From the NCBI GenBank assembly GCA_027923505.1, contig BROI01000014.1, forward strand, positions 682,001 to 746,000: a DNA stretch of 64,000 nt, written 5' to 3'. Source of the stretch: Mayamaea pseudoterrestris (lineage: Eukaryota). Positions 17,690 through 64,000 of the stretch are shown here, piece by piece. The notes beneath the pieces are model-generated. The model was not told the DNA's origin, ran no database searches, and worked only from the letters and a program-made list of their open reading frames with translations. A program made the position numbers and the translations under genes. Position 1 is the first letter of the stretch. Each line of letters opens with the position of its first letter.

Positions 17690-17899
17690 GAAACAAAAGC
17701 CAATGAAAAGTACGTCCCAAGGCAATACTGTGAAACGAGTGCCAGTGAAAACTGCGTCATCAGGCAATACTGTGAAACGAGTGCCAGTGAAAACTGCATA
17801 AAAAGGCTATAGTATGAAACGAGTGCCAGTGAAAACTGCGTCATAAGGCATAAGTATGAAACGAGTGCTAGTGAAAACTACGTCATCAGGCTATAGAAT
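17690..17899. repeat. Minisatellite, 5 x 42 bp (consensus gaaacgagtgccagtgaaaactgcgtcatcaggcaatactgt)
   Basis: Units start at 17690, 17732, 17774, 17816, 17858. Confidence 0.95.
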
Positions 17900-18198
17900 G
17901 AACCGAAACGGACGATTACGCCGCGCGCTCTTTGCTTGCCTTGACGCTCCATCGTCAACTTCACACAACAAATCACTGCTGTCAAACCTGTCGAAATACA
18001 CGACTTTTCAGGCTGAATCGAAGCAAGACAAACTTAAGAATCATTTTTGCTTGCTTACGGTGGAATAGACACGCTTGTTGTTGGTGAAGAGAAGAACCTG
18101 ATTTCTGCTGGCTTGGCCACATTCGATCGCGCTCAGCTTAGAGAGTGAAGTCAAGCAACTGTAAAAGGAAAGAACTCTTCGTCACTTCATCTACAAGA

Positions 18199-49836: not shown

Positions 49837-50329
49837 AGCTTGTTTTCGCTATCGAGTACATATTTTTAGCGTGCACTGGTGGCATGAATGGCTTCGATTT
49901 CAATGACCCCTAGGTTCAGTGAATAGAAAGTTTCTCGTGTCCGTGTGTCCGTCGATGACGCTTTTAACTGTAAACTGCGACAATGGAACATTAACATGAC
50001 GAAACGCTATGGATGCTAAACGTCAATAAGAATTCTTTGGTCATTGCATCCGCCAAGGTAGTTGTCAATCATCAATGAACCACACTTACACCTCCACCCA
50101 GACGGCCATATACAGCCTAATATTGGTTAGATGGCAATAAAACAAAGACAATTAGAAAGTGGTTTGAATAAAGAGATAACAATATATGACGCATTTTGTC
50201 AGTGTTAATTAAAAGTTACAGCCCATGCAATGGCACACCTTCAATTTGTGACCATGCTGCCTTCATTCAGATCGCCATAGATTGAGTCAAATAATTAATT
50301 TGTATAAGATTCACAAAGTCTCCTGGATT

Positions 50330-50752
50330 GCTTGTCACCAAGGACAGCCAAAGCGTCGACCACCACACCTTTGTGGTTCTCTCCTAGCACTCAACCTAGC
50401 AGCTTGCCATCAATTGTGCCATCTAGTGACCCAAACGCTAAGCCTAGTGTGTCACCTAGTGCAGGACCCAGTCTCCTCTCCAGTGCCGCACCAGGCTTGT
50501 TCCCCCTGTGGTTCCAAGTTTGTTTCCCAGCACTTAACCTAGCAGCTTGCCATCAAGTGACCCAATCGCCAAGCCCAGTGCGTCACCTAGTGCTGGACCC
50601 AATCTCCTGGATAGTCAACTTGTCACCAAAGACAGCTGGAGCATCAACCACCACATCTTTGTGGTTGTTAACCTAGCAGCTTGCCATCAAGTGTGCCATC
50701 AATTGACCCACACGCCAAGCCCAGTGCGTCACCTAGTGCTCGTACCAATTAC
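50330..50752 (+). repeat. Degenerate repeats flanking the satellite; PSxxPS mucin-like coding relic
   Basis: aacctagcagcttgccatcaa occurs three times (~50393, ~50536, ~50670); gccaagcccagtgcgtcacctagtgc-like motif occurs three times; translates as PSTQPSSLPSIVPSSDPNAKPSVSPS with frameshifts. Confidence 0.7.
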
Positions 50753-53700
50753 CCTGTAGGTGCCCAAAATACACCAGAATGGTGCCAGCATCATTATTCC
50801 GGCTGCGCTACAAGATGGTAGGCTTGGCTGGTGTCTCAGGGGATGGCAATGTATTTGGTGACAACTTGTCACCAGTCTCAGCCCACAGATGCCATGACAT
50901 TCAAACGCCCCTACAGCAAGCCCTTTGGGTGCCCAAAATACACCAGAATGGTGCCAACATCATTATTCAGGCTGCGCTACAAGATGGTAGGCTTGGCTGG
51001 TGTCTCAGGGGATGTCAATGTATTTGGTAAAAACTTGTCACCAGTCTCAGCCCGCAGATGCCGTGACATTCAAACGGCCCTACAGCAAGCCCTGTCGGTG
51101 CCCAAAATACACCAGAATGGTGCCAACATCATTATTCAGGCTGCGCTACAAGATGGTAGGCTTGGCTGGTGTCTCAGGGGATGGCAATGTATTTGGTGAC
51201 AACTTGTCACCAGTCTCAGCCCGCAGATGCCGTGACATTCAAACACCCCTACAGCAAGCCCTGTGGGTGCCCAAAAATACACCAGAATGGTGCCAACAAC
51301 ATTATTCAGGCTGCGCTACAAGATGGTAGGCTTGGCTGGTGTCTCAGGGGATGGCAATGTATTTGGTGACAACTGTACCAGCTCACCAGCTACATTCAAC
51401 GGCACCACCACCCCTGAGTGCCCAAAAACACCAATGGTGCCAACATCATTTTCTAGTGGACATTTCATGTATAAAACAACGCCCAAACACCTACAGCAAG
51501 CCCTGTAGGTGCCCAAAATACACCAGAATGGTGCCAACATCATTGTTCAGGCTGCGCTACAAGATGATAGGCTTGGCTGGTGTCTCAGGGGATGGCAATG
51601 TATTTGGTGACAACTTGTCACCAGTCTCAGCCCACAGATGCCCACCACAGAGGCCCATGCACATTCAAACGCCCCTACAGCAAGCCCTGCCCCAGAGACC
51701 CACCACCCTGTGGGTGCCCAAAATACACCATAATGGTGCCAACATCATTATTCAGGCTGCGCTACAAGATGGTAGGCTCAGCTGGTGTCTCAGGGGATGG
51801 CAATGTTCTTGGTGACAACTTGTCACCAGTCTCAGCCCGCAGATGCCGTGACATTCAAACGCCCCTACAGCAAGCCCTGTGGGTGCCCAAAATACACCAG
51901 AATGGTGCCAACATTATTGTTCAGGCTGCGCTACAAGATGATAGGCTTGGCTGGTGTCTCAGGGGATGGCAATGTATTTGGTGACAACTTGTCACCAGTC
52001 TCAGCCCACAGATGCCATGACATTCAGACACTCCTACAGCAGGCCCTGTAGGTGCCCAAAACACACCAGAATGGTGCCAACATCATTATTCCTGCTGCGC
52101 TACAAGACGGTAGGCGTGGCTGGTGTCTCAGGGGATGGCAATGTATTTGGTGACAACTTGTCACCAGTCTCAGCCCGCAGATGCCATCACATTCAGACAC
52201 TCCTACAGCAGGCCCTGTAGGTGCCCAAAACACACCAGAATGGTGCTAACATCATGATTCCTGCTGCGCTACAAGACGGTAGGTGTGGCTGGTGTCTCAG
52301 GGGATGGCAATGTATTTGGTGACAACTTGTCACCAGTGTCTGCCCGCAGATGCCATGACATTCAAATGCCCCTACACCAAGCCCTGTGGGTGCCCAAAAT
52401 ACACAAGAATGGTGCCAACACCATTATCCAGGCTGCGCTACAAGATGGTAGGCTTGGCTGGTGTCTCAGGGGATGGCAATGTATTTGGTGACAACTTGTC
52501 ACCAGTCTCTGCCCACAGATGCCCTGACATTCAAACGCCCCTACACCAAGCCCTGTGGGTGCCCAAAATACACTAGAATGGTGCCAACATCATTATTCAG
52601 GCTGCGCTACAAGATGGTAGGCTTGGCTGGTGTCTCAGGGGATGGCAATGTATTTGGTGACAACTTGTCACCAGTCTCAGCCCCCAGGTGCCATGACATT
52701 CAAACGCCCCTACAGCAAGCCCTGTGGGTGTCCAAAATACACCAGAATGGTGCCAACATCATTATTCAGGCTGCGCTACAAGATGGTAGGCTTGGCTGGT
52801 GTCTCAGGGGATGGCAATGTATTTGGTGACAACTTGTCACCAGTCTCAGCCCGCAGATGCCGTGACATTCAAACGGCCCTACAGCAAGCCCTGTGGGTGG
52901 CCAAAATACACCAGAATGGTGCCAACATCATTATTCAGGCTGAGCTACAAGATGGTAGGCTTGGCTGGTGTCTCAGGGGATGGCAATGTATTTGGTGACA
53001 ACTTGTCACCAGTCTCAGCCCGCAGATGCCGTGACATTCAAAACACCCCTACAGCAAGCCCTGTGGGTGCCCAAAATACACCAGAATGGTGCCAACATCA
53101 TTATTCAGGCTGCGCTACAAGACGGTAGGCGTGGCTGGTGTCTCAGGGGATGGCAATGTATTTGGTGACAACTTGTCACCAGTCTCAGCCCGCAGATGCC
53201 ATCACATTCAGACACTCCTACAGCAGGCCCTGTAGGTGCCCAAAACACACCAGAATGGTGCTAACATCATGATTCCTGCTGCGCTACAAGACGGTAGGTG
53301 TGGCTGGTGTCTCAGGGGATGGCAATGTATTTGGTGACAACTTGTCACCAGTGTCTGCCCGCAGATGCCATGACATTCAAATGCCCCTACACCAAGCCCT
53401 GTGGGTGCCCAAAATACACAAGAATGGTGCCAACACCATTATCCAGGCTGCGCTACAAGATGGTAGGCTTGGCTGGTGTCTCAGGGGATGGCAATGTATT
53501 TGGTGACAACTTGTCACCAGTCTCTGCCCACAGATGCCCTGACATTCAAACGCCCCTACACCAAGCCCTGTGGGTGCCCAAAATACACTAGAATGGTGCC
53601 AACATCATTATTCAGGCTGCGCTACAAGATGGTAGGCTTGGCTGGTGTCTCAGGGGATGGCAATGTATTTGGTGACAACTTGTCACCAGTCTCAGCCCCC

Positions 53701-55776
53701 AGGTGCCATGACATTCAAACGCCCCTACAGCAAGCCCTGTGGGTGTCCAAAATACACCAGAATGGTGCCAACATCATTATTCAGGCTGCGCTACAAGATG
53801 GTAGGCTTGGCTGGTGTCTCAGGGGATGGCAATATATTTGGTGACAACTTGTCACCAGTCTCAACCCGCAGATGCCGTGACATTCAAACGGCCCTACAGC
53901 AAGCCCTGTGGGTGGCCAAAATACACCAGAATGGTGCCAACATCATTATTCAGGCTGAGCTACAAGATGGTAGGCTTGGCTGGTGTCTCAGGGGATGGCA
54001 ATGTATTTGGTGACAACTTGTCACCAGTCTCAGCCTGCAGATGCCGTGACATTCAAAACACCCCTACAGCAAGCCCTGTGGGTGCCCAAAATACACCAGA
54101 ATGGTGCCAACATCATTATTCAGGCTGCGCTACAAGATGGTAGGCTTGGCTGGTGTCTCAGGGGATGGCAATGTATTTGGTGACAACTTGTCACCAGTCT
54201 CAGCCCGCAGATGCCGTGACATTCAAACGGCCCTACAGCAAACCCTGTGGGTGCTCAAAATACACCAGAATGGTGCCAACATCATTATTCAGGCTGCGCT
54301 ACAAGATGGTAGGCTTGGCTGGTGTCTCAGGGGATGGCAATGTATTTGGTGACAACTTGTCACCAGTCTCAGCCCGCAGATGCCGTGACATTCAAACGCC
54401 CCTACAGCAAGCCCTGTGGGTGCCCAAAATACACGAGAATGGTGCTAACATCATGATTCAGGCTGCGCTACAAAATGGTAGGCTTGGCTGGTGTCTCAGG
54501 GGATGGCAATGTATTTGGTGACAACTTGTCACCAGTCTCAGCCCGCAGATGCCATAACATTCAGACACACCTACAGCAGGCCCTGTAGGTGCCCAAATTA
54601 CATCAGAATGGTGCCAACATCATTATTCAGGCTGCACTAAAAAATGGTAGGCTTGGCTGGTGTCTCAGGGGTTGGCAATGTATTGTGTGACAACTTGTCA
54701 CCAGTCTCAGCCCACAGATGCCGTGACATTCAAACGCCCCTACATCAAGCCCTGTGGGTGCCCAAAATACACCAGAATGGTGCCAACATTATTATTCAGG
54801 CTGCGCTACAAGATGGTAGGCTTGGCTGGTGTCTCAGGGGATGACAATGTATTTGGTGACAACTTGTCACCAGTCTCAGCCTGCAGATGCCGTGACATTC
54901 AAACGCCCCTACAGCAAGCCTTGTGGGTGCCCAAAATACACCAGAATGGTGCCAACATCATTATTCAGGCTGCGCTACAAGATGGTAGGCTTGGCTGGTG
55001 TCTCAGGGATGGCAATGTAATTGGTGACAACTTGTCACCAGTCTCAGCCCGCAGATGCCATGACATTCAAACGCCCCTACAGCAAAGCCCTGTAGGTGCC
55101 CAAAATACACCAGAATGGTGCCAACATCATTATTCAGGCTGCGCTACAAGATGGTAGGCTTGGCTGGTGTCTCAGGGGATGGCAATGTATTTGGTGACAA
55201 CTTGTCACCAGTCTCTGCCCGCAGATGCTGTGACATTCAAACGCCCCTACAGCAAGCCCTGTGGGTGCCCAAAATACACCAGAATGGTGCCAACATCATT
55301 ATACAGGCTGCGCTACAAGGTGGTAGGCTTGGCTGGTGTCTCAGGGGATGACAATGTATTTGGTGACAACTTGTCACCAGTCTCAGCCTGCAGATGCCGT
55401 GACATTCAAATGCCCCTACAGCAAGCCTTGTGGGTGCCCAAAATACACCAGAATGGTGCCAACATCATTATTCAGGCTACGCTACAAGATGGTAGGCTTG
55501 GCTGGTGTCTCAGGGGATGGCAATGTATTTGGTGACAACTTGTCACCAGTCTCAGCCCACAGATGCCGTGACATTCAAACGCCCCTACAGCAAAGTCCTG
55601 TAGGTGCCCAAATTACACCAGAATGGTGCCAACATCATTATTCAGGCTGCGCTACAAGATGGTAGGCTTGGCAGGTGTCTCAGGGGATGGCAATGTATTT
55701 GGTGACAACTTGTCACCAGTCTCTGCCCGCAGATGCCGTGACATTCAAACACCCCTACAGCAAGCCCTGTGGGTGC
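50752..55776. repeat. Tandem satellite array, ~29 copies of a 169-bp monomer with higher-order repeats
   Basis: Monomer gtgcccaaaatacaccagaatggtgccaacatc...tggtgacaacttgtcacca...cctacagcaagccctgtgg recurs at 50760, 50929, 51098, 51267, 51509, 51714 ... 55604; last copy truncated at 55776. Confidence 0.98.
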
Positions 55777-56065
55777 TCCGGCTCAGGGCGGATGCTTCGA
55801 GGAGACTGCCTTGGGGACACTCATAAGATACCCTTATGAGTACACTGTGATCGATAGTCACGTCATCAGTGGTGCGGGAGAGAAGAATGGGAACAGCTAC
55901 CGACAACGGGCAGACCACATGCCAATGTTGATCGGGTTGCCTCCCATTCCTTTGGTTAGCTTGCCGACCTTGTTGTTGTCTAGCAAGCTCTCTGTTGTTT
56001 GTTCTTGCCTTTGTTGCTCGAACCGCGTTTTCTTTGCTCCCTATTTCTCTCGTTTTCTCTCGATC

Positions 56066-59000
56066 ATGACGCTCGTCCGTTTCCCTGGAGCTCTCAAAGA
56101 GTTTGGGGGCGCTTCGCCTGCTTTCCGTTTGCCGATCCAAACCAAAGCCTCGACTACGTGGCTTGCGAAGGAGACGCCCAAGAAAGAGGAGAGAGCTGCA
56201 GCTATGGCGTTGCAGATTGACGGTTGGACGGAAGGGCAGGCGGTCCTGACAAAAGAGGAGGTATACGCCCTGAACAAGGAGATGACCATGCAGGAAGGCC
56301 TCGACGGCGATGGAAAGCACTTGTGGCTCGGAACCCCTACTCGCCTCAAGATGTTGGCAACGGAAAACATTGGAGGAATCTTGACTTTATCCTCGCTTCG
56401 CAAGCAGTTTTCGGGAGCCGGAGAGCCCGAGGCTGATGGATCGACCCTTGGACACGAGCAATTGGCAATCATTTGCTCAGCCATGCCGTCAGGCACAGCG
56501 CTTGGACAGAAATACATTCTAGAAGATACAAAGCTCGGCCATTTGGTTACCAATGGACCAGAGATGGAACCTGAGGGGCTCTCGGATGCAGACGATCCGT
56601 TTGCGCCGACACTGGCGCTATCACCCAGCGGCTTCGACGCGCCTCCAGCAGTGAATCCCATCCTTGCAAGCCTCTCGCGTCAAACACGGGCGCCTTTGCA
56701 AGCAACACGCGAGGAGTGGTTCGAGGAGATCAAAATGGACATGGCTATTTTCCCACGCGGTGACAAGCTTCTACAGCCAGTCATGCTGTGCATCCACGAG
56801 GACGAATTGCCCGACGAGGCGTCGTTTGAGCATGAAATGATTGGTGGTCGGGGACACTGGCAAGGACCGCCTACTTATCAGTATGGCGAGACACCGGTAT
56901 CGGCGTACGCAACAGAACAGGAGCTACAGGAGTCGACGACAAAGATTGTACCATTCGGACGATGCTTCTTTCTTCCTCCAAATCATGGCATGCCCGTCGG
57001 TTTGCCATTCGACCCATCGGTTTGCGCGACAGCCGGACAGTTGAAAGCCCACTGCGTGGCCTTTACAGGTGTACCAGGGGAAGTATACGACTGGATGGAC
57101 GACAATCTCCTCCTCACTGTATGGCTCAAGGGATGCCGCGAGAGCGCAAACGAGATGAAGACGGAAACGTGGCTCATGTCGCAAGCGACATCGACGTGGG
57201 ACGCCTGGAAGCAGAAAACTTCTTTGCTTGCCCAACAAACATTCCATCACCCAGAGCTCATGATTCGCTCGCGTATCTTGTGGGACCACTTGGTGCACAC
57301 ATTGGAACCTAACTGGCGAGACAAGCTCCTTTTGCTGGGCCAGAACGCACAGACGATATTCCGCAACTCGCCGTTAATCGCAAAGTTTCACGAGCCGCGC
57401 ATGGAAAACATGTGGTACCTCGCAGGTCTATTGAATATTAAAACGTCCAATTGGTGTAAACAATTTGAGATCAATTTTCTCCACCAAGGATTACCAACCT
57501 GGCTGGACCGCTTTGCTCGAGTGGACATTTCGGCCACTACATCAGCAGCTGACTTGGCCAAGCTTCGGATTGTTACAAAGGCAGCCCACATGGAAAACAA
57601 CACGCCCGGCTCTGCAGCAACGACGCGATCGAGAATCCCAATCGGAGACTTAGTTGCACATGTTTTTAACGACCGATTTGGAGCGGGTGTTGGATCTCCT
57701 CTGCAGCTGAAACAGTCCGACCCAGACAGAAACCCACCGTCCTGGTATGACGACGAACGCAAAAAGAGAGCAGAAGGCCAGCCAGGAACAGCTAAAACCC
57801 TGTTCCATGCGCAAAGCTATCATAACAGCAGTGGCGATGGTGATTCTGTAGAATACGTGGGCTCTAAGCGTCCACCAATTGCCAACAGCGGATGAAACTG
57901 CCTCAGCGAAACAATACACGAGCGGTGGCCTTCAAGCAAATCACTTGCTTACCATTGACAAGTAACGACACAAATGGAAAGCACATGACAGACAGCATGG
58001 CTACCAAGGCGCCGATGGACCATACTTCCACGAGACGGGAAGACTCAAAGCATCTTCGCGCGACCCATACGTAAAGGGCGCCCTGCTCAATTCAGTTACC
58101 CAACTCGCTCACTTGGGAGCCTTTGCTGTTCCACCGGCCGTTTGCATGGGTCCACCTTCCATCGAAGGCGTTCCAGTAGTGTTTCCAGACTACTCAATGA
58201 TGCTTCCGGGGCTCGTGAGTAAGCAATATTGCGCCAATGTGATCCATTCTCGCAACCACCCGGCCGATATCCATCAGGCGGGAAACTTTCTACAGACCGA
58301 ATACGAGGCTACTTTACGATCCTCTTTTACTACTTACTTCCGGCCTCTCTTCGAGGGCGACACATTCTACACAAAGGGTGAAATACTCAAAGCGCTGCAG
58401 TCTGGAGTCGTCTCCGCGGGTACAAGTTTCCAAGCCACGCCTGCGGGCATTGGCGCGGGCATCACACCCTACCACTTTCTGCCGACCATTCTTGGCAATA
58501 CATTTCGTCTACCCATGGATGGCATCATCTGCAATAAAATGGTTCAATTGATCAAGAACATGGGCTGGTGGCTGCACGTCGTTTTCCATTTTCCGAGTCG
58601 CTTCCGTCACTTACAGCAATTAAACGATGAACTCTCTCCCTTCATGGTCTCGGCTCCTCTGGCAGGACAGTTACACTGGCTCATTGAACATCTCTCCAAG
58701 AGTCAGTCCCAACAAGCATGGGACAGAATGCCGGCTCGCCATCGAGTGGCAGCGACCAACGCCGTCATGGTCAGTCTCAGCAGCCTCATTCAAATATTCC
58801 TTGATTGGGCGGTAACGCACACTATGGAACAGCACTGCCTTCCAGTTTTCCTCTGGGAAGAACCTTCGCGTTCAGATCTGTGTGTTTTCGAAACAACCAT
58901 TCGCGTACGGGACTATGCGACTCTACAAACAGTTCTCCACGACTGGCGAAAGGAATGCACCAGCTCATTCAATGCCACAGTCTTCACAGCCCACACGTTA

Positions 59001-59516
59001 CCAATAAATGCGTTCTACAGTCGGGCTATATTGCCGGATATTCAACCAGCTCGGCCTTTACAGCAGCCAGCAAACCCTCCGACGCGACCGGATCGAGTCG
59101 GTGCTCTCGGCAATCCTCACCAGAATCCATCTCAGCAACAGCAGCCGTCACAGCAGCCGCAAAGACAACTGCAGCCCAATGTTGGTACGTATCGCCGAGC
59201 GCCAGTGCCGTTAATTCGTTTTGTCGACATACCAGAACCCTCCGTTCGCAATGTCAAGGACACATTGGGGTCTTGGACACGTGCTCAAATTTCGGCGCCC
59301 ATCCTGCAAGGGAAACAAGTGTGCTTCCCTTTCATTATAGCGGGCATGCAAGGCTGCAACTCAGCCAATTGTCAGCGCTGCGAAATAGACATTCGGCAAA
59401 CACAACAGCCATGGACTCGCGAAAACTTGCTGCCATTGACCAATTTTCTAAATCGCGGCCCAGTCAAAGCAAAGTTCCAGCCGACCGCCGAATACACACG
59501 CATTACATCTTCCTGA
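56066..59516 (+). pseudogene. ORF1 (gag-like) of the element, split into 56066-57895 and ~57852-59516 by a frameshift and TAA at 57963-57965
   Basis: Long ORFs in the expected position; C-terminal Q/P linker then CFPF-x7-C-x4-C-x2-C finger; downstream frame open from 57852 apart from one TAA. Confidence 0.6.
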
Positions 59517-62500
59517 CTACCATTGCCAAGGATCATCAACTCGCGCCCGCCAGTCAGCGCGCCAGACAGCAGGCCGCCACTAGAGCTGCATTCTGCACTT
59601 GCAGCTCCGGTGGAACGCATCACCGCAGTCACCTTCACAGTTTCAACAAGCGCACCTACGCGTGACACCGCTACGACAGCGCAAACCGTCCACACCGAAC
59701 AAGTCATCACTGCTCCAACAAGTTCATTGTTGCGGAAGCTGCTACCGCCATTTCCAGACCAGACAGCACCCCAACAACGCACATTGCGAAGGCAACCTCC
59801 ACACTCGAAGGCACTGTGGCCAACGCCTGAAAATTACAATCAGTACTTTGCCACAGTGGTAGCGCCCGTCTGGCCTTACCTGGACACAGAAGATTCGCAG
59901 GCACTACAGGCGGCAAATCCTCAGAATAATCACCCTCTGTACGGATCGGCCAGTATGCTGCAGTTGGACGACCTCGTTTGGTCACGTCGCCGGCGCGGAT
60001 GGGGAAAGGAAACCGAAAATCTCCAGACAGAGCATGACTGCCCATCCATATTCCACATTGTACACATTGTGTGGGATTACCTACGGGTGTCACTGCGGCG
60101 ACTGATGGCCGTCACCCTCCGCGATACAACGCATGAATACGCGACTCTAAGACTTCGAGCGGCCACCACTCCAGTTCACCACCTCCGCCTCGAACGCCAT
60201 TACCCAGCGCTGGACCTCACACCAATTTGCCCCACTCGGGTTCTAGACATGGGCGCAGCTTTATTGCGATGTGATTTCAACTATGGTGACCTGCTCCGCT
60301 GGCTCGGCGGAGAGTACACGCAACAAAACCAGGATCGCTCCCTACTCCGCGACGTGATTACGGCGGTGCGCAGTAAGGGCATTCCCAGCGCTTACCCTCC
60401 CATTGCATTTGACGAGGCTCTGCAAGCCGTCGACGAGGGAGTGCCGGGCATCAGTAAATTCCGCTGCCCGATCCGCGACGTTGCGAGGCGAGAAAAAGAA
60501 AACAATCGAGGGCTGGAGCACTGCTGGGATGAAGTCATGGAAAAATACAGGAAGGAAGAAAAATTGTCCTATCATATTATGTTTCCTCGCTTCCTCTGGA
60601 AGTACATTCCTGGGCTCTTCCTGGCACTAATCTCCTACATCCCGCCGAAACCAGGAAGGGTGGGCGATGAGGGTCGCCTCATCAACGACCCATCAACCCC
60701 ATTGTACCCCGGTGACAGAGGCAACGTCAACAGCCAGATTCCAAAGCTCAAAACTGTGGATCACGACGAGCGTCAAAATCCTAAGGTCTACTATGGTTCA
60801 GTCATTCACCGCCTGGTAAAATTGATTTACAATCTCCGCCTCGATCATCCCGAGGAGGAGCTCTACATTGCGGCAGATGACATCTCGGCGGCGTTCCGTT
60901 GGCTCCACTACCACCCAGACATCGCAGTTGCCTTTGCCACAGTATTAGACACTTGGTTGGTGATACCAGTCGGTATGATCTTTGGCGGACGATTCTCCCC
61001 TGGATGGTACATGATCCTCGGGGAACTCCGTGGCCATATAGCGGCCACACTCGACATTGGCAGTGCCACCACTGATTTGTCGGACAACATACACCTCAGC
61101 CCAGCTATCACTCCACAAGAGCAAGCCACTATTGTTGCAGCCGTGCGATATTGCTATAATACAGGCACATCGGCAATCCTCGGTCCTGACTACAAGTATG
61201 GTTTCTCAAGCTTCGTTGATGACCAGGGTGTCGTGGCGACTCGGGCCAATATTCGAGAGGCCATTCACCGCAGCGTCATTGCGGCTTGAGTGGTCTTTGG
61301 TGAACCAAACCCAAAGCATCGCTCTCCTTGCATCAACGACAGAAAATGGAAGTGCGCTGTGTCCCATCAATTAACGTATCTTGGCCTTGATTGGGACACA
61401 TGTCGCATGACGGTTGGTTGGCCAGACGCCAAGCAGCGCAAGCTCGCCATTATGCTCGAGCAAATGAATAGTGAATGGCTACAAAACAAGCAATACAAAC
61501 AAGTCATCATCTCTGCAGCAGACAAGTCATCCTTGGTGGGCCTCATGCGGCATGGAGCTTTTGTAGCGGACCTTGCAGATTTCCTCGCCATTCGCGTTCA
61601 ACAATCACTCTCTGATGCCGCTCGACAGGCAGATGCGCAAGCAAAACGCTTGGACACCAAGAAAAGACGAGTTAACGATACCAAGAAACTGAGCACACGT
61701 GCTTGGTGGCGTAAAGGACGGATCTCACTGTCAAAGGAAGTGCTCGATGATCTGCGGATGCTGTATCCAACGCTCAACAATCCAAAATGGCAGCACGTCT
61801 GGCACAAACCCATTGGCCTCATGGTGGCTCGGGTTCCAACCAACACAATGAAAAGTGACGCCAGCACCACGGGTATTGGAGGTTGGAACCTTACCTTGCT
61901 GTTTATGTGGCGACTAAACGATGACGACTTGGCGAGCTGCAAGTTTAACATGCGCAAGTTCAACACAAATGTCACCCGGCGGCCTCAAACGACGGATGAA
62001 TACCATATCAATATCTTGGAATTTGTCGCCATTGTTATCAATGTCGTCTTGGCGCTGGGAACCCTTGCCCATGATGATACCATGCGGCACAGCCAACACA
62101 TTTTCAACGTCTTGGCCGACAACACCTCGGCTCTCTCCTGGATGCGGCATGCGGCGAGTTGCAAAGCTACAGAAATCAGGCGACTGGCACGCTTCTTTCA
62201 CGCAATTACAACTTACCAACCTCTTGCTCTCCGCATTCAGGCAAACCACATTCCAGGAAAGGACAATGTGGAGGCAGACCGCCTCTCTCGCTTCACGCCG
62301 TCGACTCTCTCGTGGGCATCCGTTATCTGTCCGGACACGCAGGCATTGGCAGCTTGCAAAGTTTACCTAGTGGAGCGCGAGCTGCTTTCCACAATCTCGT
62401 CCGTGATCAATGGGAGCGCGAGCGAGGCGACATACGGTCCAGAAACGATCGCGCGTTTGATCAAAGAGCCTCGCATTTTGGCAGATGGAGCCTCCAGGCA

Positions 62501-62558
62501 GGATTCACAGACCAGTCTTTTGCGGAAATCGCATCGGGGCAAGAAATCGCGGTCTTAG
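59517..62558 (+). pseudogene. Reverse transcriptase + RNase H (pol) with one in-frame TGA at 61287-61289
   Basis: RT: ADDISAAF, PVGMIFGGRFSP, FVDD, TYLGLDWD; RNase H: SDAS..GIGG, HINILEF, ADNTSA, HIPGKDNVEADRLSR; ORFs 59523-61289 and 61290-62558 share a frame. Confidence 0.9.
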
Positions 62559-63613
62559 CAGGCTACTTGTTTGCAGTTGCCTCTGGCGAGACGTCCTTGG
62601 AGATTGACAAAAACAAGCTAAAAGGAAAGGCAAACGCACAACAAGATCCATTGATGGTGAAGACATTAGTGGGTTACCTAAACGCCGCGCACTCTCTCCT
62701 CGAGTTGTTCCTCAATCGCAAGTTTTCCATTCACAACCCCAACAGAGAGGGTTATCACCCCATGCTAGCAGACATCCTTGCTAGTAGGCGCAAGTGGCAG
62801 AAGGCACGAGAAAAGCGCGAGCCTTTCACCAACAAAATGTTTGAGCATTTATATGCCTCTTTGAAACAGGCAACAGCTCAAAACGTCACTGTGAATCTCG
62901 ATCTACAGGCCGCAGTTTTTGATTGGACTTGCCTTGGCGCCTTTACTGGTTCACGTGCCAATGAATACGCTCAAACTACAGCACGAAGAGGTTGCTTCAG
63001 CAAGGTTCCTGCCAATAAGGACGCCGGCGAGTGGGCACACCAGCCATTGGCTTTCATTGACTTGGACTTCATGTTCTACACAGCCGACAGTGTACTACTC
63101 CCACATGACAAGCTGCTAAAACATCCAGCCGCAGCCGCCAAATTGCACTTGCGTTTTCGCTACGACAAAAGTCAAAACAACTTTTCCATTCGAAAGTTTA
63201 AACGGTCTGGGCATCCCTTCATTTGCCCTATAGCAGCTAGCGTCTCCATCATCGGACGCGCGCGCTGCCTCCATAACAAATCGTCAAAAGAACCTTTGGG
63301 CGTCTTTCGCACTTCTGGCACGGGAAGCTACGACTATCTACAGTCACGCGATATTATCAAGGTGATGCGCGAAGCAGTGGTTGGAGCATACCCCGACCCA
63401 CAGCATTTCCTTCGCCAGAATGTGACTCGCATTGTGGCTCACTCTAACAGAGTCACAGCTGCCGTTGCCTTGCAGAATGCAGGTCTTGATATTCAAGAGA
63501 TTGCATTCAGGTTGCGCTGGTCTGCACCATCAGTTCAACATTACCTTCGAGAAAGCTCCCAGGAAGTCGGGCGCCTGACGCTCAAGGCTATCCAGGGAGC
63601 AGTTTTAATTTGA
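62159..63613 (+). CDS. Tyrosine recombinase (phage-integrase family) of the retrotransposon
   Basis: Catalytic set: GSRANEY (R), RYDKS (K), HSNR (HxxR), LRWS (W), VQHY (Y); uninterrupted; overlaps pol in the -1 frame; true start unknown. Confidence 0.9.
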   Translation: MQSYRNQATGTLLSRNYNLPTSCSPHSGKPHSRKGQCGGRPPLSLHAVDSLVGIRYLSGHAGIGSLQSLPSGARAAFHNLVRDQWERERGDIRSRNDRAFDQRASHFGRWSLQAGFTDQSFAEIASGQEIAVLAGYLFAVASGETSLEIDKNKLKGKANAQQDPLMVKTLVGYLNAAHSLLELFLNRKFSIHNPNREGYHPMLADILASRRKWQKAREKREPFTNKMFEHLYASLKQATAQNVTVNLDLQAAVFDWTCLGAFTGSRANEYAQTTARRGCFSKVPANKDAGEWAHQPLAFIDLDFMFYTADSVLLPHDKLLKHPAAAAKLHLRFRYDKSQNNFSIRKFKRSGHPFICPIAASVSIIGRARCLHNKSSKEPLGVFRTSGTGSYDYLQSRDIIKVMREAVVGAYPDPQHFLRQNVTRIVAHSNRVTAAVALQNAGLDIQEIAFRLRWSAPSVQHYLRESSQEVGRLTLKAIQGAVLI

Positions 63614-64000
63614 GTGTCGCTCACGACCTCGTCTACTAGCAGACGTTACAATCTTCTGCAACTTTGAGATTACTAGGTTACGAGACTGTAGCTAAAGGTT
63701 TGCATCCGAGTCGCCGGCCTTTGGTCTGGCTGCTTGTGCGCTCCTCGTCTTTAGCTAGCTCCTCCTTATCAGGGGCAATCTCCAGGGTCTTTCCACAGAT
63801 CCAGAGTCTTCTCGTTCTCCTTCTCTTTCCTTCTTCCGCGGTTCTCGCCACACGGCCTCTTTGTTTGTTTGTGTGGCGTGACTGCCCCCAGCAAGCTGTT
63901 GTTCGTGTGGGTTGTGGCGAATCCTCCTCACAGGATTCGCTCCAGTCATCATTGATGACGTGGTTGTTGCTCCAGGGACCCGGAGTTTGCACTCCGAGTC

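Follow-up and report, generated by a model that had tools for sequence, protein, structure and literature searches.

A Ngaro-type tyrosine-recombinase retrotransposon of the diatom Mayamaea pseudoterrestris joined flush to a 169-bp satellite array

Introduction

Integration by tyrosine recombinases (YRs) can be site-selective, and among the retroelements that carry such an enzyme, DIRS-1 of Dictyostelium clusters at centromeres and inserts into its own copies. DIRS1-like elements are characterized by inverted terminal repeats, an internal complementary region and a methyltransferase domain. Here we describe a YR retroelement of the diatom Mayamaea pseudoterrestris that lies directly beside a 169-bp satellite array, in a 64,000-nucleotide stretch (the window) of contig BROI01000014.1 (assembly GCA_027923505.1, positions 682,001 to 746,000 of the forward strand). 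A sequence-only reading of this DNA had proposed that the element may target a fixed position in the satellite monomer, that its recombinase might also remodel or amplify the array, and that satellite and element might form one unit.

The nearest described systems are the Ngaro elements of Cafeteria burkhardae, which is a stramenopile, as is the diatom. According to the sections of the Cafeteria study that deal with these elements, they are laid out with split repeats as A1-[open reading frames (ORFs)]-B1A2B2, and solo AB repeats also occur (PMC8547959). Type 1 elements are found in 91% of cases inside endogenous virophages (EMALEs; 80 mapped copies), and the authors suggest in the same sections that a Gag-like ORF may steer this preference (PMC8547959).

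The M. pseudoterrestris genome has been reported as 30.6 Mb in 41 gapless contigs (PMC9724779). In the repeat table of that paper, repeats amount to 19%, Copia elements making up most of them; 7.36% is unclassified and the satellite entry reads 'Satellites 0'. Neither a 169-bp satellite nor YR elements are mentioned in the main text (PMC9724779). Our literature searches returned no paper concerned, by title or passages, with a diatom YR retroelement in a satellite or with a Mayamaea satellite, and a search for diatom satellites and centromere repeats returned none on such a satellite in M. pseudoterrestris. A Chaetoceros preprint lists 'LTR/Ngaro' from RepeatMasker only.

Results

The element begins at the base that follows the satellite array and runs to the end of the window. 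It is of Ngaro type, and we consider it probable that the window holds a degenerate copy, an ordinary insertion that survived in a tolerant repeat region and for which no sequence specificity is needed. The features of the locus, with the evidence for each, are as follows.

50752..55776, no strand: 169-bp satellite array of about 30 monomers (Tandem Repeats Finder (TRF), monomer map, palindrome count, conservation profile, block duplication)
55777..56002, plus strand: A1, the 5' terminal repeat (match to the A-start motif; end of A taken from a read joint of 56002 to 63909)
56066..57895, plus strand: ORF1, 609 codons, in the position of gag, no recognisable domain (ORF list; no Pfam match; Atlas uninformative)
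57966..59516, plus strand: ORF2, open from 57966, first start codon at 58113 (translation; match to the relative L009)
59517..62558, plus strand: pol frame, with about 230 codons of no assigned function, reverse transcriptase (RT) and RNase H (translation, motif coordinates, 29 relatives, fold of the relative P0068, paralogs)
62159..63613, plus strand: YR ORF, in another frame than pol (62 relatives, invariant columns, Cre profile match, AlphaFold2 model, Foldseek)
63906..64000, plus strand: opening part of B1, first copy of the split repeat at the 3' end (read joint at 63909; alignment to the B starts of relatives)

The array stops after ...ccctgtgggtgc at 55776 and tccggctcaggg begins at 55777, with no DNA between them. 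The monomer is cut after its 12th base, between GGGTGC and CCAAAA, and continuation in phase would read CCAAAATACACC. Relatives of the element were collected as 79 metagenome loci on short-read contigs, fetched with the YR alignment. A 30-nt motif at the start of A, with up to 8 substitutions allowed, occurs 14 times in these loci and the window together, and the occurrence in the window starts exactly at 55777. The motif lies 3' of the end of a B repeat in 11 loci and stands against unrelated flanking DNA in L010 and L019; because of these two loci, it can be taken to mark the 5' end of the element. Base 55777 is base 1 of this conserved terminal motif, and the junction is therefore a true terminus, a biological end and not a chance break. 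From 55777 onward the element has no similarity to the satellite or to anything else within the window, and no direct repeats were found between its two ends inside the window. The sequence-only reading was thus accurate on two counts: the element is a YR retroelement, as described below, and it is joined flush to the array, at the element's exact first base. The 169-bp satellite bearing a palindrome, which ends at 55776, is likewise borne out, by TRF and by the palindrome count given below.

From its 5' end the element probably runs from A1 through an upstream ORF closed by an in-frame stop, RT/RNase H and a YR that overlaps pol to B1 A2 B2, and its assignment as Ngaro is made from gene content, gene order and the terminal layout of relatives. 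Among the 40 longest loci, 30 have the order RT, RNase H, YR; 10 have an internal deletion or too little upstream sequence, and no locus has a different order. B1-A2-B2 follows the YR in L004/L005, L007, L016, L017, L039 and L059, while the A1 of L010 and that of L019 adjoin foreign flanks. In L010, where both flanks are visible (ending ...CGCTTTT on one side and beginning TCTCGCG... on the other), there is no duplication of 3 nt or more. In the window, 63906-64000 matches the B starts of L004, L007, L016 and L017 moderately, with a mean column identity of 51%. In contigs of sequencing runs X1 and X2, position 56002 is linked to 63909 by 15 C-rich letters, and a similar C-rich tract lies just 5' of B2 in relatives. 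This joint is what the expected A2-B2 junction, or a solo AB form, would give. By analogy with the B+A units of relatives (388-433 bp), the element probably ends about 0.5 kb past base 64000.

Read depth was summed over contigs of the runs, a measure that differs from copy number, the compared stretch containing no single-copy DNA. In run X1 the bin 55840-56142, which overlaps A1, has about 25 times the depth of the element interior, and the depth rises again in the last two bins (63415-64000), which include the start of B1. Since the A1 and B1 bins exceed the interior, many more termini than interiors may exist. Five loci with overlapping ends or two head-to-tail copies (L009, L033, L045, L060 and L068; periods of 8.2-9.8 kb) may be circular or tandem forms but were not counted as evidence for either, because split repeats alone make a short-read assembly graph cyclic.

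The family shares with the Cafeteria Ngaros the order of upstream ORF, RT/RNase H and YR, together with the H-x-x-R motif and catalytic tyrosine of the YR, and the solo AB repeats described there match the A-to-B read joint of the diatom element (PMC8547959, sections on element structure). The differences concern size and recognisability. The upstream ORF in the family of the diatom element has about 1100 codons and is parted from pol by one in-frame stop, unlike that of Cafeteria, and relatives measure 8.2-9.8 kb by contig period compared to about 6-7 kb in the Cafeteria elements described (PMC8547959). Pfam matches to PF00078, PF17919 and PF00589 are given for the latter (PMC8547959), whereas the diatom element has none at threshold (YR, E 0.017). 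With DIRS-1 and the DIRS1-like elements the diatom element shares a YR, overlapping ORFs and the lack of an integrase; relatives of the diatom element, in contrast to DIRS1-like elements, carry direct split repeats and not inverted terminal repeats. No methyltransferase domain was detected by Pfam, which is a weak test here. A DIRS1-like identity was considered and rejected: the sole inverted match between the ends of the window copy covers 22 of 27 nt, and the relatives have direct split repeats.

The recombinase ORF overlaps pol by 400 nt and contains no ATG before 62654. The catalytic residues are R266 (62954), K337 (63167), H428 (63440), R431 (63449), W454 (63518) and Y462 (63542), of which all but W454 are invariant in an alignment of 30 YR sequences, W454 being present in at least 90%. 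The 62 relatives found are 35-60% identical to the YR of the window. A profile of the family matches Cre (E 3e-4), and the AlphaFold model (predicted local distance difference test (pLDDT) 77.5) gives Cre as the top Foldseek matches, over both domains, with a template modelling (TM) score of 0.59-0.64 on the target. The model has 26 Protein Data Bank (PDB) matches at E ≤ 1e-3, and Cre, XerH, XerA and Tn1549 Int are among the fold matches. The window YR thus has in common with Cre and simple tyrosine recombinases the two-domain fold and the catalytic residues; it differs from Cre in its low identity (about 12%) and in a long extension at its N terminus (about 160 residues, with pLDDT < 50 for residues 1-41). 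The conserved N-terminal part of the YR (62159-62653) contains no ATG and overlaps pol in another frame. The overlap of YR and pol seen in the window is found in most relatives, and some gene models fuse RNase H and YR (P0005, P0120, P0121).

With Pfam none of the five ORFs gave a match at E ≤ 0.01, and at E ≤ 10 solely Phage_integrase was returned (E 0.017, below its cutoff); single-sequence PDB searches with the RT and YR ORFs gave noise only. The YR profile retrieved 488 clusters at E ≤ 1e-30, a number that rises to 2692 at E ≤ 1e-3, and no Pfam domain is recorded for any YR or RT relative found.

The pol frame contains the following motifs, whose names are our own reading.

60870-60896, plus strand: RT motif A
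60960-61004, plus strand: RT motif B region
61212-61226, plus strand: RT FVDD
61854-61874, plus strand: RNase H DAS
62010-62024, plus strand: RNase H E
62115-62132, plus strand: RNase H ADN
62247-62291, plus strand: RNase H H..N..AD

The D-D and FVDD columns of RT and the D-E-D-H/N/D columns of RNase H are invariant in 29 relatives. A profile of these 29 RT/RNase H relatives matched no solved RT among PDB sequences, so a fold search was needed. The model of P0068, a relative 45% identical to the window RT (pLDDT 79.8), has 148 PDB matches at E ≤ 1e-3, headed by retroviral, Ty3 and caulimovirus RTs and including those of CaMV, XMRV, foamy virus, Ty3, MMLV and HIV over about 600 columns. The window protein itself is matched at 100% by MPSEU_000709100, an annotated RT gene of M. 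pseudoterrestris located on a contig of 917,834 bp. One RT relative, P0112, is labelled as a protein of a Plesiomonas shigelloides metagenome-assembled genome; the label probably reflects eukaryotic contamination of a bacterial bin.

In seven of seven relatives the upstream ORF is uninterrupted (1059-1183 codons). The window copy has instead two pieces in different frames, ORF1 and ORF2. Weak colinear matches (E 0.006-0.7) align ORF1 with the N-terminal half of the relatives' ORF, and ORF2 corresponds to the C-terminal half (residues 725-1175 of L009, E 1e-10). No gag signature was found in ORF1 by Pfam, and the best Atlas score was 0.78, below the usable level; on these grounds 'gag' is a positional guess.

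The TGA that closes ORF2, at 59514-59516, lies in the frame of pol. Diverged relatives likewise have one in-frame stop (TGA or TAG) at this place, between pol and an upstream ORF of about 1100 codons, at the following positions.

Window: 59514-59516
Relatives: L009, 8832; L068, 3891; L045, 3569; L060, 3299; L073, 3323; L079, 5152; L038, 1760; L036, 7476; L046, 2327; L051, 547; L033, 63

The stop is preceded by a ...TP[S/A/G]T.W motif in eight relatives (L045, L038/L036, L046, L051, L068, L060, L073, L079), and its context in the window is UGA CUA. Since relatives have a stop at the same place, the TGA at 59514-59516 is not damage, and from its sequence the arrangement looks like expression of pol by read-through at a conserved stop, as in gammaretroviruses.

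A second TGA, at 61287-61289, lies inside RT. Three paralogs (P0064, P0070, P0103) have arginine at this position, which identifies the TGA as a nonsense mutation, and contigs of run X2 over this stretch show no difference. With this codon and the split upstream ORF, the window copy looks dead. The 'full gag-RT-RNaseH-YR cassette' of the sequence-only reading therefore holds in part: RT, RNase H and YR are present, and the catalytic residues, Cre profile match and fold bear out that the element is a YR retroelement, whereas gag lacks a recognisable signature, RT carries the nonsense TGA and the 3' end lies past the window.

The satellite array consists of two regular tracts with a period of 169 by TRF, 50752-51385 (3.8 copies, 95% matches) and 51706-55776 (24.1 copies, 93% matches, score 7091). 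Between them, 51385-51706 is a rearranged patch inside the array, as determined by mapping one monomer back onto the window (about 30 units). A 17-nt palindrome, GGTGACAACTTGTCACC, occurs without change in 26 monomers and with one mismatch in 1 more, against 0 expected from 100 shuffles. No other 17-mer of the monomer is conserved as well: in the alignment of 27 monomers, 25-26 have it exactly, compared to a median of 17 of 27. A six-monomer block at 52044-53058 is repeated in tandem at 53059-54073 (1015 nt, 7 mismatches, 99.3% identity), a recent higher-order amplification within the array, from which it follows that the array is still changing by unequal exchange. The left edge of the array (50752) is monomer base 1 and the right edge (55776) is monomer base 12. 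In runs X1-X3 the summed contig depth of the satellite is thousands of times that of the element interior. A protein search with the translated satellite ORF returned one NCBI gene model, MPSEU_000710100, a diverged variant of the satellite that the window does not encode.

Several further observations concern the satellite and its surroundings. As a nucleosome-sized, dyad-bearing diatom satellite, it is a possible centromeric or subtelomeric repeat. In run X4, which is labelled as another organism, loose ends at 55607 carry telomere-like AACCCTAACCC directly 5' of a satellite variant, and from these contigs some satellite arrays may be subtelomeric. Between a DBR1-like gene and the array (50316-50751), about three degenerate repeats of about 130-140 bp can be seen by eye, which appear, also by eye, to have a short CTTGTCACCA motif in common with the monomer; BLAST of these repeats against the monomer gave weak matches of 13-29 nt only. 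They may be old satellite relatives. The genes of the left flank are ordinary, including a lariat-debranching enzyme (DBR1), a pyridoxal phosphate (PLP) enzyme and an HflX-type GTPase, and scans of the region for tRNAs and against Rfam gave no match. A separate 42-bp tandem repeat (5 copies, 83% matches by TRF) is located at 17699-17906.

Discussion

How the element came to lie at this position can be described by the accepted model for its class, which we apply here. The transcript would be reverse-transcribed, and the split repeats would let a closed circular DNA form. The YR would then exchange strands between the B-A junction of the circle and a chromosomal site, with no bases added and no target-site duplication. 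This strand-exchange model fits the flush join at 55776/55777, where base 1 of the element stands against a monomer cut after base 12. Decay then followed, with the nonsense codon in RT and the splitting of the upstream ORF, and the simplest account of the copy's place in the satellite is survival, insertions in a gene-dense 30-Mb genome persisting mainly in repeat tracts. The flanks of relatives are consistent with insertion of this kind: a satellite array is found in none of the 79 loci, and flanks that can be read consist of host genes, Copia elements or unique sequence that is uncharacterised (host genes and then a Copia element in L010/L012; Copia in L019).

Some considerations weigh against non-specific insertion and retention, which is in any case a default reading and not a result. 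The satellite-free flanks carry little weight, because short-read contigs break at satellites and the YRs of the relatives are only 35-60% identical to that of the window. In another stramenopile, Ngaro types with a strong target preference are described in the sections cited above (PMC8547959). MPSEU_000710100 lies on the same contig, 10 locus tags from the RT gene, an arrangement that would allow for satellite on either side of the element; satellite-like DNA is probably also present beyond it. With regard to the structure of the copy, its A2, B2 and 3' junction lie beyond base 64000, where the full split repeats and the absence of a target-site duplication are not visible in the window; the read joint of 56002 to 63909 has only 30 letters on its shorter side; and the inverted match between the two ends has an E value of 0.007, albeit in a tiny search.

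One alternative is satellite targeting, in which the YR recognises a site in the 169-bp monomer and integrates between GGGTGC and CCAAAA, with copies accumulating in arrays. The known capacity of this enzyme class for site-selective integration and the flush join at the element's exact first base would both accord with it, as would the satellite variant 10 locus tags away and the depth of the A1 bin, far above that of the interior, if many more termini exist. The Cafeteria type 1 elements, with 91% in virophage elements, are a precedent for a Ngaro lineage that strongly prefers one repeated target, and given this precedent in another stramenopile the idea is not absurd; that case, as described, involves 80 mapped copies (PMC8547959), compared to one junction here, made by one defective copy. 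By eye, the cut site has no clear similarity to the B-A junction of relatives (GATTG followed by TCCGGC), and the conserved palindrome of the monomer lies about 60 nt from the cut and not at it. The flanks of relatives differ from one another and are not satellite. Five paralogous gene models, known as proteins, are located on four other contigs, and no satellite-derived model was found near their locus tags, an absence that is weak evidence because the search returned a single such model from the whole NCBI annotation. Taking both sides together, we regard satellite targeting as unlikely, and neither targeting of a fixed monomer position, nor remodelling of the array by the YR, nor satellite and element as one unit finds support here.

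Two resemblances were considered but given no weight, being short and lying away from the cut, namely that of the B-end palindrome of relatives, GGTGATCAGCAATCACC, to the satellite palindrome (both GGTGA...TCACC) and that of CTCAGGGGATGG in the monomer to the start of A. A more elaborate version, in which the Mayamaea lineage is site-specific at this cut, the arrays serve as landing pads and the extra A and B termini are solo repeats spread through the arrays, is quite unlikely.

The array might also have grown after the insertion. In that case the element would have landed beside unique DNA or a short repeat, expansion of the 169-bp array would later have reached the element's 5' end, and the element would border the array instead of interrupting it. 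The array extends from monomer base 1 to base 12, near a whole number of units, and the 1015-bp block copied at 99.3% identity indicates that it is still changing. The degenerate left-flank repeats that by eye share a short motif with the monomer would also suit this order of events, but their BLAST matches to the monomer are only the weak ones of 13-29 nt. Judged by summed depth, the runs contain the satellite elsewhere in great abundance, which argues that arrays pre-exist and spread, and a satellite variant lies further along the same contig. The order of events is not readable from the window, and we consider later growth rather improbable. An assembly artefact, a collapsed or chimeric join that placed satellite beside element, is highly improbable: satellites are hard to assemble and no contig among the pieces listed bridges 55776/55777, but the break coincides to the base with a conserved element terminus, unlike a random misjoin, and the published assembly is described as 41 gapless contigs (PMC9724779).

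Non-specific insertion followed by decay thus remains the preferred explanation, and at present the locus, though well resolved, is an ordinary one, with a dead retrotransposon copy bordering a repeat tract. If targeting were true, the element would be the first satellite-specific tyrosine-recombinase retroelement, and would serve as a natural tool and as a model of how retroelements integrate site-specifically into satellites. The satellite is of interest in its own right, with a strongly conserved palindrome and high summed contig depth set against zero satellites in the repeat table of the genome paper. The retroelement family is large, unnamed and without Pfam annotation. Because no Pfam domain is recorded for the relatives, standard pipelines will miss or mislabel it in diatom genomes; its terminal motifs and layout, as described here, make it easy to find.

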